From Pseudomonadota bacterium (GTDB lineage Bacteria; Pseudomonadota; Alphaproteobacteria; Paracaedibacterales; CAIOTO01): a stretch of 64,000 nucleotides of DNA. Within the stretch, counting starts at the first letter, position 1, and every line of letters starts with the position of its first letter. Positions 15,680 through 18,040 of the stretch are shown piece after piece. Position numbers and translations under genes: made by a program. A model generated the notes under the pieces. The model searched no databases. It had not been told where the DNA came from and saw only the letters and a program-made list of their open reading frames with translations. The stretch lies in NCBI GenBank assembly GCA_040389165.1, contig JAZKAK010000003.1, positions 12,931 to 76,930 of the forward strand, written 5' to 3'.

Positions 15680-18040
15680 CTACAAATCATCCTCATCATC
15701 AAACAATGAATTCATCATCATTTCTATGATGCCAGGATATTGCATTTCGTCAGAAATGGAATAAAGAGAACGTATTGCATTGCGATCACCTTGTGCTGGC
15801 TTATAAACAGGCGCCATAGCATTTAAATCGCTTTGTATTGGTGCATAAGCAGGTGCCATAGCATTTAAGTCACTTTGTATTGGTGCATAAGCAGGCGCTA
15901 TAGCATTTAAGTCACTCCCATGCATACTGAGCGAAACGTCACTATCACTATTCTTTGCAATAGCTTTTTCACGTTTTTCCTTTTCACGTCGTTTTGCATT
16001 TTTGATCCCAGAACGTGATTTTTGTGTTTGACCGCTTGTCAATTTTACAGACGCTGCATGTCCTTCTGCTTCAGCCAATTTGTCCATTGCTTCTTGCTCT
16101 GCTGCCAGACGTTCTGCTTGCTCTGCTTGTTGTTTTCTTAGTTGATTTTCCGTTAACTTCTGCGTAGTTTCTTTCTTCTTTTCATTTAATTGCGCTACAT
16201 ATGCAGCGCTTTGGGACTTACTTAATTGCTTTTCTCTCAGACTTTCTGCTTTACGCTCTTCCTCTTCATGTTCCTCTGTACGCTTTTTCTCTTCACGTGC
16301 TGCGGCTACATCCAAAGCCACACGTTTTGCGGCTAAACGTTTTTCAGCTGCCATAGCATGTCGCAAGTTTCTTTCACTTGGTGAAAGAGCAGAGGCGTCA
16401 GACGATACAACCACTGTATCAGGAATAGCCGCTGAGTTTACTGCGGCTTCCATAGCACGCGCACGATTAGCTTTCGTACGCTCTGCCTGCGCAACTTTTT
16501 CAGCCAGCCTTCTTGCTTCAGTTTTTTTCTTATCTTGTTCTTCTTTTTCCATCTTTCTTACTATAGTTCTTGTTTCTTCTTCTTTTATAGACAAACGTTG
16601 TTTAGCATCATCATATTTTTTCTTAACAATGGCTGTCAATGCGTTAACAGCTGCTATATTTGGATCTCTTCTTATTTCTGAAATGTATTGAAAAATTTGA
16701 ACTCTCTCTAAGGCCATGTCAAACTCATTTTGAATCATCAACAAAACAATATAATACGCTATAGCGCTATTAAAATTAGTGGCTTCAAGTAACACATAAT
16801 ATTGATCGTAAATGTCAAAAAGTGTCGGAACCTCAACAATGCTATCCACAGACGAACGTGAACTTTGCAACGCGTCCTCTTTATCATCTAGGTCAGACAT
16901 CTCTAATTCTGCTCGCTGATATAATTTACCTTCAATATCTAAAATTAAATCCACAGCAGGGCTGTATCCTTGCTGAGAAGATGAGGAACTACCACTGGCT
17001 TTTGCAGATTTTTTTCCTTGCTTAGATTTTTTTTCTTCCAAGGACCTGTATATTTCCAACTTAACACTCGCTAGCACATGACCTTGACACTGGTAAAGAC
17101 CTGCGTCGTCCAAAGAAAAAGAATCAACACATCCTTCTACCAATTCATATGCCGCCCTTTGAAGTTCAGCTTCTTTGAATTTATTCAATCCTTCTTGTTT
17201 TTTTGACTGTTCCATAAGGCACACTGAATCTATTAAATTTTTGATTTTCGAAGAATATTCGTCTGTTCGAGAAAGTGAATCACGAATGCATTTCATTTTT
17301 TCTAAATACAAATTTTTCAACGTTTCATTGGTAATTTGATATGCGTTCGCATATCGACACGCAAGTTGAAATCTTAATTTAGGAATCATTCCAATACTTA
17401 ATTCAGTCCCAGGATTTTTTTCAAGCATCATCTCCTGATAGTGTATGGCCATTTGCAGTATGTCTGGAAGTGGATCTCTATTATTCCTTTTAACAGACCC
17501 CCTGTTTATGCTTAAAAGATAATCCGTTACAAGATGTGATGAAGAGTTCTCCGCAAACACAGAAAGATCAAAGCTATGCTCTTTAATTCTGTCATTAACA
17601 CCAGGCACGATAGAAGTTCTAGATCCCCATTCAATCATATAGCTCGATACCAAATTCAATCCAGCTATATGATGGTTCTTTTTTTCGTTAAGAGAAATCC
17701 CCCCAATATCTGCTAAACCTATATGGCTACTTATTTGAGCAACCGTATATAAATAATAAAAACGTTCCAAGTCATCAAGAGTTAGTTTAAACGTACACAT
17801 AGAAAAATTAGGTGCCGCTGCCGCAGCGAGAACGCCTTTGTAATCGCCTCTACTCGCCATATCCATCAAGCCTTCTCCAAATGCACACATCTCTTGAACG
17901 GATGTAAACGGCCTCGTTCGAACCACCTGAGGCACATCTGTGGCTATCATCATAAAACGTGACTTTGACCCAAAAGCAAGGGGAGCCATGAATGCCGATG
18001 TTAGAAAGGTTGATGCTAATAATTTTGTGAGTATGTTCAT
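15680..18040 (-). CDS. Large secreted coiled-coil protein with C-terminal 3x14-aa PAM2-like repeats and an acidic tail
   Basis: ORF runs to 18097. The likely start is ATG 18040, giving signal peptide MNILTKLLASTFLTSAFMAPLAFG. It has a long E/K/R/A coiled coil, and the C-terminus is SDLNA(I/M)AP(A/V)Y(A/K)P x3 followed by ...LFDDEDDL. Confidence 0.7.
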   Translation of the reverse strand: MNILTKLLASTFLTSAFMAPLAFGSKSRFMMIATDVPQVVRTRPFTSVQEMCAFGEGLMDMASRGDYKGVLAAAAAPNFSMCTFKLTLDDLERFYYLYTVAQISSHIGLADIGGISLNEKKNHHIAGLNLVSSYMIEWGSRTSIVPGVNDRIKEHSFDLSVFAENSSSHLVTDYLLSINRGSVKRNNRDPLPDILQMAIHYQEMMLEKNPGTELSIGMIPKLRFQLACRYANAYQITNETLKNLYLEKMKCIRDSLSRTDEYSSKIKNLIDSVCLMEQSKKQEGLNKFKEAELQRAAYELVEGCVDSFSLDDAGLYQCQGHVLASVKLEIYRSLEEKKSKQGKKSAKASGSSSSSQQGYSPAVDLILDIEGKLYQRAELEMSDLDDKEDALQSSRSSVDSIVEVPTLFDIYDQYYVLLEATNFNSAIAYYIVLLMIQNEFDMALERVQIFQYISEIRRDPNIAAVNALTAIVKKKYDDAKQRLSIKEEETRTIVRKMEKEEQDKKKTEARRLAEKVAQAERTKANRARAMEAAVNSAAIPDTVVVSSDASALSPSERNLRHAMAAEKRLAAKRVALDVAAAREEKKRTEEHEEEERKAESLREKQLSKSQSAAYVAQLNEKKKETTQKLTENQLRKQQAEQAERLAAEQEAMDKLAEAEGHAASVKLTSGQTQKSRSGIKNAKRREKEKREKAIAKNSDSDVSLSMHGSDLNAIAPAYAPIQSDLNAMAPAYAPIQSDLNAMAPVYKPAQGDRNAIRSLYSISDEMQYPGIIEMMMNSLFDDEDDL
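15791..15916 (-). repeat. Coding tandem repeat, 3 x 42 bp (14 aa)
   Basis: The GCATTTAA(G/A)TC(A/G)CT anchor recurs at 15819, 15861 and 15903. The repeat encodes SDLNA(I/M)AP(A/V)Y(A/K)P(I/A)Q. Confidence 0.9.

Follow-up and report, generated by a model that had tools for sequence, protein, structure and literature searches.

Introduction

The eukaryotic PAM2 motif (Pfam PF07145; ELM LIG_PAM2_1), known from Paip1/2, eRF3, ataxin-2 and Tob, is a 12-residue peptide located in disordered regions. In its published definition, position 3 is hydrophobic (Leu, sometimes Phe or Pro), position 4 is Asn or Ser, position 5 is Pro, Val or occasionally Thr, position 7 is an invariant Ala, Glu is preferred at position 9 and position 12 is usually Pro, while the Phe at position 10 is described as invariant and as the most important residue (PMC2854688). 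In the present study, a bacterial DNA stretch of 64,000 nucleotides (contig JAZKAK010000003.1, positions 12,931 to 76,930; hereafter the window) was analysed, in which a first-pass annotation had described a 42-bp coding repeat at 15791-15916 as three tandem PAM2-like motifs in a secreted coiled-coil protein, directed at the MLLE domain of host poly(A)-binding protein (PABP). We give an even chance to the reading that this array is a young, slippage-type triplication in the probably disordered tail of a putatively exported, fast-evolving endosymbiont protein, and that its likeness to PAM2 is partial and at noise level.

Like eukaryotic PAM2, the repeat units have Leu3, Asn4, Ala7, an aromatic residue at position 10 and Pro12; the peptide FNPEATEFQP of a second protein in the window adds Pro5, Glu9 and Phe10. 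The array differs in its Tyr10 and Ala5, in the absence of Glu9 and in a score below the Pfam cut-off, and also in being bacterial and in lying behind a signal peptide. Its three units follow one another head to tail; in most PAM2 proteins the motif occurs once.

PAM2 mimicry has been established experimentally for viruses, i.e. for the P/V/C proteins of Hendra and Nipah virus and the N proteins of HCoV-229E and Berne virus, whose binding to the PABC domain of PABP1 was measured and found to be motif-dependent (PMC10132805). Like these mimics (Hendra virus LNPAAVPFVP), the array would be a pathogen-encoded LN..A..(aromatic).P peptide in a disordered region, and this is the mechanism that the earlier annotation had proposed. 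The Hendra virus and HCoV-229E peptides, however, have Phe at the key position and measured binding, whereas the array has Tyr and is bacterial. In the functional variant PAM2w of LARP4 and LARP4B, the Phe at position 10 is replaced, indicating a versatile pocket; the replacement there is Trp and not Tyr, and no Tyr variant was found in the PAM2 literature searched.

Several PAM2 motifs in one chain are also known. Upa2 of Ustilago combines a dimerising coiled coil with four PAM2 motifs, and its binding scales with motif number; a synthetic tandem array of four Hendra virus peptides (4x HeV-PAM2, 'PABPi') pulls down PABP1/4 (PMC10132805). The repeat-bearing protein resembles both in having several PAM2-like units per chain, and Upa2 also in its coiled coil, but the motifs of Upa2 are dispersed, canonical and eukaryotic, and the phenotype tested did not depend on them. 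Among bacteria, the closest precedent is PieF (Lpg1972) of Legionella pneumophila, an effector directed against the poly(A)/deadenylation machinery of the host, which binds CNOT7/8 of the CCR4-NOT deadenylase; it is a folded, Dot/Icm-delivered protein that binds a nuclease module, and no linear-motif mimic of a PABP ligand. The literature searched yielded viral mimics and no bacterial mimic of PAM2 or of PABP-MLLE ligands, in agreement with the first-pass annotation, which was aware of none.

The 42-bp repeat array

Translation of the - strand yielded exactly the three units that had been annotated, close to the C-terminus of the protein and corresponding to residues 709-750 of its 786 residues (numbering of protein P0001): unit 1, SDLNAIAPAYAPIQ (15875-15916), unit 2, SDLNAMAPAYAPIQ (15833-15874), and unit 3, SDLNAMAPVYKPAQ (15791-15832), which had the highest Pfam PAM2 score among the units. 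At the DNA level, the 42-bp repeat was detected by the program TRF at 15803-15916 (2.7 copies, 91% matches, score 186). Units 1 and 2 were identical at 40 of 42 nucleotides, and unit 3 matched each of them at 33 of 42. The amino-acid changes among the units were confined to positions 6, 9, 11 and 13, and the changes in codons 1, 2 and 7 were synonymous. The tandem repeat itself is certainly beyond chance.

In register after unit 3, a further segment, GDRNAIRSLYSISD (15749-15790, - strand), was identical to unit 3 at 20 of 42 nucleotides, which placed it within the top 1% of in-frame windows of the gene. It retains D2, N4, A5 and Y10 and is devoid of L3, A7 and P12; on this weak evidence, it may be a decayed fourth copy. 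Slippage or unequal recombination would have produced the 42-bp in-frame array, and an unstructured region, such as the tail is predicted to be, would tolerate the expansion of a repeat, of which there are other short coding examples in the same genome.

One such example was observed in the adjoining murB gene (14623-15615, + strand), where a 12/24-bp coding repeat at 14635-14706 (TANTTANDIANTTANATATDTAND) forms a lineage-specific N-terminal extension. The MurB proteins of relatives could be aligned only from about residues 30-35 onwards, past the extension built from the repeat, indicating that this genome readily gains coding micro-repeats, in housekeeping genes as well.

Fit of the array to PAM2

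The annotation had stated that each unit fits the PAM2 pattern. This was borne out for positions 3, 4, 7 and 12, which are Leu, Asn, Ala and Pro in all three units, with polar residues at positions 1-2. It did not hold for the remaining determinants: all units have Ala at position 5, Ala or Val replaces the preferred Glu at position 9, and position 10, where PAM2 requires Phe, is Tyr in all three. The codon TAT is one nucleotide from TTT, yet Phe does not occur at this position in any of the three units.

The Pfam PAM2 model (gathering cut-off 20 bits) was calibrated on known PAM2 peptides. Paip2 scored 34.6, Paip1 30.2, ERD15 26.2 and the core of the validated Hendra virus mimic (LNPAAVPFVP) 20.1 bits, while TOB1 (NSFNPEAQVFMP) scored 16.2 bits, so that a functional motif may only just reach the cut-off or fall short of it. 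The 60-residue array obtained 14.2 bits (E 0.037), and no match was reported by the model for native single units. Exchange of Phe for Tyr in Paip2 lowered its score from 34.6 to 26.2 bits, a cost of 8.4 bits, which implies that Tyr is essentially absent from position 10 in the PAM2 family. Conversely, replacement of Tyr by Phe gave 18.2 bits for unit 3 and 16.3 bits for unit 2.

PAM2 was the sole Pfam family reported for the array, and likewise for the FNPEATEFQP peptide. A repeat-aware control was carried out with ten arrays, in which the same random permutation was applied to each unit and the flanks were kept. Two of the ten shuffled arrays matched other Pfam motif families at E-values of 0.0014-0.03, matches as strong as or stronger than that of the array to PAM2: WW_1 (18.7 bits, E 0.0014), accompanied in the same shuffled array by Ribonuc_red_lgN (E 0.03), and Integrin_b_cyt, the NPxY family (17.6 bits, E 0.0032). 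By this control the 14.2-bit match is at noise level, and the fact that PAM2 is the only Pfam match of the array carries no statistical weight. Since shuffled arrays matched the WW and integrin NPxY models at least as strongly, claims of motif mimicry in repeats need controls of this type. An independent hidden Markov model (HMM) was built from nine canonical PAM2 peptides and used to rank 23,001 tiles of forty residues, taken from proteins of the window and the background; the array ranked about 401st. A PDB sequence search with the peptides gave noise only (Pol II CTD, E 4.3; mitochondrial ribosomal proteins, E about 1).

Other host-directed linear motifs built on Tyr and Pro were considered for the repeat, i.e. 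EPIYA-type sites for phosphorylation and SH2 binding, xPxY/YxxPhi signals and LxxLAP-like prolyl-hydroxylation sites. Tyr and two Pro residues are invariant across the units, YAPI in units 1-2 resembles YxxPhi and LNAMAP resembles LxxLAP as these motifs are commonly defined, and shuffled arrays of the same composition readily matched WW and integrin NPxY models. Tandem Tyr motifs are established in the bacterial effectors CagA, Tarp and AnkA, which provide a precedent. However, no acidic residue precedes the Tyr, unlike in EPIYA-type sites, none of the patterns is exact in all three units, none received specific support from the tools used, and each holds far less information than PAM2, so that chance matches come easily. 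A function of this kind was considered very unlikely.

Under the preferred reading of a young triplication in the tail, the PAM2 likeness at L3, N4, A7 and P12 is most likely partial and at chance level, and the array would not be a canonical PABP ligand, given the Tyr in place of Phe at the key aromatic position, the Ala5 and the absence of Glu9. If functional, the tail would most likely extend flexibly from the tip of a dimerising stalk, displaying several peptides and making weak contacts at most. The single most likely specific target would be the MLLE domain of host PABP.

Recurrence of the pattern and a second PAM2-like protein

Recurrence of the pattern across secreted proteins had been taken as a sign of mimicry. 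The strict pattern [LF]N..A..[FY].P was counted in the window proteome (17.5k residues) and in 2000 shuffles; it was expected 0.034 times, with a probability of 0.0015 for at least two matches, and two window proteins matched. No match was obtained in 449k residues of alphaproteobacterial background, and about 77 kb from the closest relatives likewise gave none. With a looser ELM-style expression, 0.42 matches were expected and the probability of at least two was 0.07. The strict pattern was picked after the data had been seen, and it allows more at position 10 than the motif as published. Moreover, the three repeat units represent a single evolutionary event, and the search implicitly covered many windows and several hundred classes of motif. 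The presence of two independent, putatively exported orphan proteins with PAM2-like peptides within 64 kb is thus suggestive; of the recurrence claim, the enrichment in the window over shuffles stood, while the pattern was post hoc and its third supposed instance, in an OTU-like protein, was rejected.

The second matching protein is encoded at 60998-61732 (+ strand) by an open reading frame (ORF) of 244 residues starting at ATG 60998, with AGGA upstream of the start codon. It consists of a predicted signal peptide, an acidic segment with the PAM2-like motif and a helical C-terminal part. When it was searched for homologues, the sole match was the protein itself (P0002), which is therefore an orphan. 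FNPEATEFQP was translated at 61139-61168 as had been annotated and proved to be a very good PAM2 match. The extended peptide FVFNPEATEFQPT (61133-61171, + strand), located just after the signal peptide, is the best PAM2 candidate of the window by the published determinants, all of which it has (F3, N4, P5, A7, E9, F10 and P12), and by HMM rank. It ranked first among the 23,001 tiles with the independent nine-sequence HMM, and third among 456,940 positions with a simpler position-weight matrix that did not contain the similar TOB1 sequence. In Pfam PAM2, the FNPEATEFQP peptide scored 12.9-14.3 bits, under the 20-bit cut-off and close to TOB1.

The PAM2 motif of TOB1 is FNPEAQVFMP, which FNPEATEFQP resembles. 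FNPEATEFQP is also identical at 7 of 10 positions to the protist motif MNPNATEFMP of Leishmania eIF4E4, which is structurally validated in its bound form with the 'MFLE' domain of PABP1. As an F->A exchange in the latter costs only 4-fold in binding, the MLLE domains of protists may tolerate more variation at position 10; the Leishmania motif is an endogenous eukaryotic one, and its relevance to the host of this metagenome-assembled genome (MAG) is an extrapolation. Judged by its residues, FVFNPEATEFQPT appears to be a much better candidate for a PABP ligand than the array that had been flagged.

A one-residue-offset motif, LNPSATKFATP, had been annotated in the OTU-like protein. It was indeed translated at 58300-58332, but it gave no match in Pfam PAM2 and ranked 86th of the 23,001 tiles, and was rejected as an offset PAM2. 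The OTU-like protein (58063-60606, + strand) matched no Pfam family at E<=0.01, and at E<=10 only noise was seen (DUF2730, E 3.8). By eye, DGMCGEHS (about residue 282) and GPGHYD (about residue 813) resemble the Cys and His motifs of OTU proteases, separated by a long coiled-coil insert. Residues 73-174 (58279-58584, + strand), which include LNPSATKFATP, showed a marginal match to the Tetrahymena 40S protein eS24 (4bts_AP, E 0.071), having Y.F.TQ.G.GK....VYD in common; Ribosomal_S24e of Pfam was not matched, and the similarity is possibly spurious.

The array and its companion as possible ligands of host PABP

That the array is a true multivalent PAM2 mimic, whose Tyr-variant units bind in the MLLE groove of host PABP, was judged unlikely. 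Such a protein would be exported via Sec and released into the host cytoplasm, where a coiled-coil dimer would present three (or six) units to PABPs lined up on poly(A), in competition with eRF3, Paip, Tob, PAN3 or GW182. As a result, translation or mRNA decay in the host would be altered, and the FNPEATEFQP protein would share this target. Besides the matches at four determinants and the enrichment of the strict pattern, this scenario draws on the position of the motif in a low-confidence tail, on the signal peptides of many eukaryote-like proteins of the organism, and on the precedents of Upa2, with its multiple PAM2 motifs and coiled coil, and of the fourfold PAM2 inhibitor. It is opposed by the Tyr at the 'invariant' Phe, by Ala5 and the missing Glu9, by the failure of Pfam to report single units, by the noise-level score of the array and its low rank with the independent HMM, by the lack of conservation, the ortholog being without the repeat, by the unproven release from the periplasm to the host and by the post hoc choice of the motif class.

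Several points weigh against a likeness by chance. None of the ten shuffled arrays matched PAM2 itself. The units differ only at positions that are not critical for PAM2, although the chance of such a pattern was about 0.1-0.2, making it weak evidence. MLLE pockets, described as wide and shallow, admit Trp in the case of LARP4/LARP4B, and with Leishmania PABP1 the binding of an F->A peptide was just 4-fold weaker (33 vs 127 nM). PABP binding is stronger with multivalent PAM2, as in Upa2 and with the synthetic 4x HeV peptide (PMC10132805). Lastly, a second, canonical-looking PAM2 in another putatively exported orphan of the window is improbable as a chance event, with about 0.03 expected by the regular expression and the first rank among 23,001 tiles.

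In a broader form, the endosymbiont would export PAM2 mimics to a protist host, with one or both of the motifs (mainly FNPEATEFQP) being genuine MLLE ligands in vivo; this appeared doubtful. By analogy with known PABP ligands, the Phe-type FVFNPEATEFQPT and the Tyr-variant array would both dock on PABP MLLE and disturb translation termination or deadenylation. If true, and judged by the literature searched, neither a bacterial PAM2 mimic nor a natural PAM2 array in head-to-tail order would have been described before, and PAM2 mimicry would extend from RNA viruses, where it was shown experimentally in 2023, to bacteria. Host PABP would then be a target of protist endosymbionts, whose effectors are almost wholly uncharacterised, and a natural multivalent PABP ligand would be at hand. 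If the likeness is not real, which was judged likelier for the array, the case illustrates how easily short tandem repeats rich in Pro, Ala and Tyr resemble eukaryotic linear motifs.

Relatives and evolution of the repeat-bearing gene

A word-indexed search of the full repeat-bearing protein against 5.8 billion proteins returned only the protein itself. The 90-residue tail gave no match in the same set, the repeat being common to no other protein, and scans of genome contigs and metagenome contigs revealed no relative. An exhaustive HMMER search detected five distant family members (P0003, P0004, P0005, P0007 and P0008), and the repeat was sought in, and absent from, all five. The members of this small, lineage-restricted family have a common architecture of a signal peptide, a helical domain and a K/E coiled coil, followed by unrelated C-termini. 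One member, P0003 (723 residues, E 1.7e-39), shows 27-28% identity to the repeat-bearing protein and is its positional ortholog, adjoining murB-murC-murG in a sister genome (run SRR26324620, neighbouring accession). Conservation in orthologues, a general mark of short linear motifs, was thus not found, as P0003 and the four other members are without the repeat, which is unique to one lineage.

Between the genome of P0003 and the window, ThrRS is 95% and MurC 90% identical, while the repeat-bearing protein shows 27% identity. Downstream of murB, close relatives with 90-91% identical MurC differ: a 27%-identical ortholog of the repeat-bearing gene was found in L082 (10001-12172), a gene for a 1060-residue autotransporter in L002 (8764-11946) and a gene for a patatin-like protein in L003 (12771-13847). 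These differences suggest that the site downstream of murB is a hotspot for the turnover of genes for host interaction. Given an identity of 27% against 90-95% for housekeeping proteins, and the different genes present at the site in close relatives, comparison of the sequences indicates that the repeat-bearing gene is exceptionally fast-evolving and lies at a variable site.

Three other candidates for relatedness were rejected. P0006, which matched the repeat region (E 7e-6), is a spurious ORF across a 42-bp DNA tandem repeat on a gene-poor contig; it needs TGA to be read as Trp and has Ile3 and Ser7. An ancestral tail element (AIR..Y), noticed by eye in P0003 and P0005, gave local alignments no better than shuffles (p 0.13-0.99). 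A HicA-like C-terminal domain, noticed by eye in P0007 and P0008, had no Pfam match even at E<=1.

Predicted structure and export of the repeat-bearing protein

The coding sequence (CDS) of the repeat-bearing protein was placed at 15680-18040 (- strand) and encodes 786 residues, identical to the NCBI protein P0001 of the MAG. The mechanical ORF is longer (15680-18097, - strand, 805 residues). The ATG at 18040 is most likely the real start, based on the AAAGGA 7-8 nt upstream of it, the 786-residue P0001 model and the N-termini of homologues. By inspection, the protein starts with a Sec-type signal peptide, MNILTKLLASTFLTSAFMAPLAFG (17969-18040, - strand), with cleavage predicted after AFG and before S, and an equivalent hydrophobic N-terminus was present in all five full or partial homologues.

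AlphaFold2 (AF2) models were computed twice, with very shallow alignments of one and six sequences. In the model from the six-sequence alignment, residues ~40-460 (16661-17923, - strand) form an all-alpha, helical-repeat N-terminal domain; the predicted local distance difference test (pLDDT) values were ~76-89 over residues 41-170 and mostly 65-84 at 190-280, with helices throughout. A Foldseek search of the AF2 model against the PDB yielded nothing at E<=0.001 and only weak resemblances to generic helical repeats of TPR, 14-3-3 and solenoid-like type, and the whole protein matched no Pfam family. The following stalk, rich in K, E and A (residues 462-665; 16046-16657, - strand), is predicted as two uninterrupted long helices at 462-536 and 554-665 (pLDDT ~70-82), in support of the coiled coil described by the first-pass annotation. 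The C-terminal tail (residues 692-786; 15683-15967, - strand), which contains the array and has the acidic end ...SLFDDEDDL, had pLDDT values of 27-40 in both runs, and is probably disordered.

The protein had also been called secreted. The Sec-type signal peptide and its equivalents across the family agree with export, whereas release past the periplasm is unproven. As a Sec signal alone delivers a protein no further than the periplasm, we considered that it might be a structural protein of the envelope or periplasm that is kept from the host, with a tail that contacts a bacterial partner or adjusts length. Long coiled coils combined with helical-repeat domains are common among envelope-associated proteins, and the gene adjoins the cell-wall genes murG, murC and murB in two species. 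However, an identity of 27% against 90-95%, together with presence or absence at this site among close relatives, is what genes for host interaction typically show and would be unusual for core parts of the envelope; in this organism, ankyrin-repeat, patatin and OTU-like proteins, which make sense only in a host, carry signal peptides as well. A purely bacterial role in the envelope was regarded as quite unlikely.

Organism and gene neighbourhood

The MurC protein of the window was 91% and 90% identical to those of two uncultured alphaproteobacterial MAGs and 79% identical to that of a Candidatus Paracaedibacteraceae MAG, the nearest relative with a name by this protein, pointing to an uncultured Paracaedibacteraceae-like (Holosporales) endosymbiont as the probable source. 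The Paracaedibacteraceae have been placed in the Holosporales. Members of this order are endosymbionts of protists. The window represents ordinary chromosome with thrS, murG, murC, murB, ftsZ, parAB, tyrS, def and others, and these housekeeping genes are interspersed with orphan or eukaryote-like genes. By inspection, starts resembling signal peptides were present in an ankyrin-repeat protein, a patatin, the OTU-like protein, a 2OG-Fe(II) oxygenase and several orphans; Sec-type signal peptides were assigned to the orphan or eukaryote-like CDSs at 5752-6129, 7707-10103, 10659-12755, 22198-23331, 32283-33539, 47170-47625, 58063-60606, 60998-61732 and 61840-62868. No dedicated secretion system was identified within the window. 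The distribution of these predicted signals suggests a set of Sec-dependent exported effectors in the endosymbiont, and a reading of the repeat-bearing protein as exported and host-directed appears reasonable, if unproven.

An 831-residue protein encoded at 648-3143 (- strand) contains a glycosyltransferase DXD sugar-binding region (PF04488, E 1.1e-6) and is reminiscent of glycosylating toxins or effectors. Directly upstream of the repeat-bearing gene, an inverted repeat of ~27 nt was observed, which belongs to a small set of repetitive elements. Intergenic tandem or palindromic elements of this set were located at 10392-10482, 18160-18265, 43756-43904, 45494-45549, 48228-48294, 48403-48467 and 60618-60700. 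They have cores in common, e.g. GTCATCCTCGGAC, GGATGACAAA and GTCATTCCCGC, and look like a family of small repetitive extragenic elements or elements resembling miniature inverted-repeat transposable elements.

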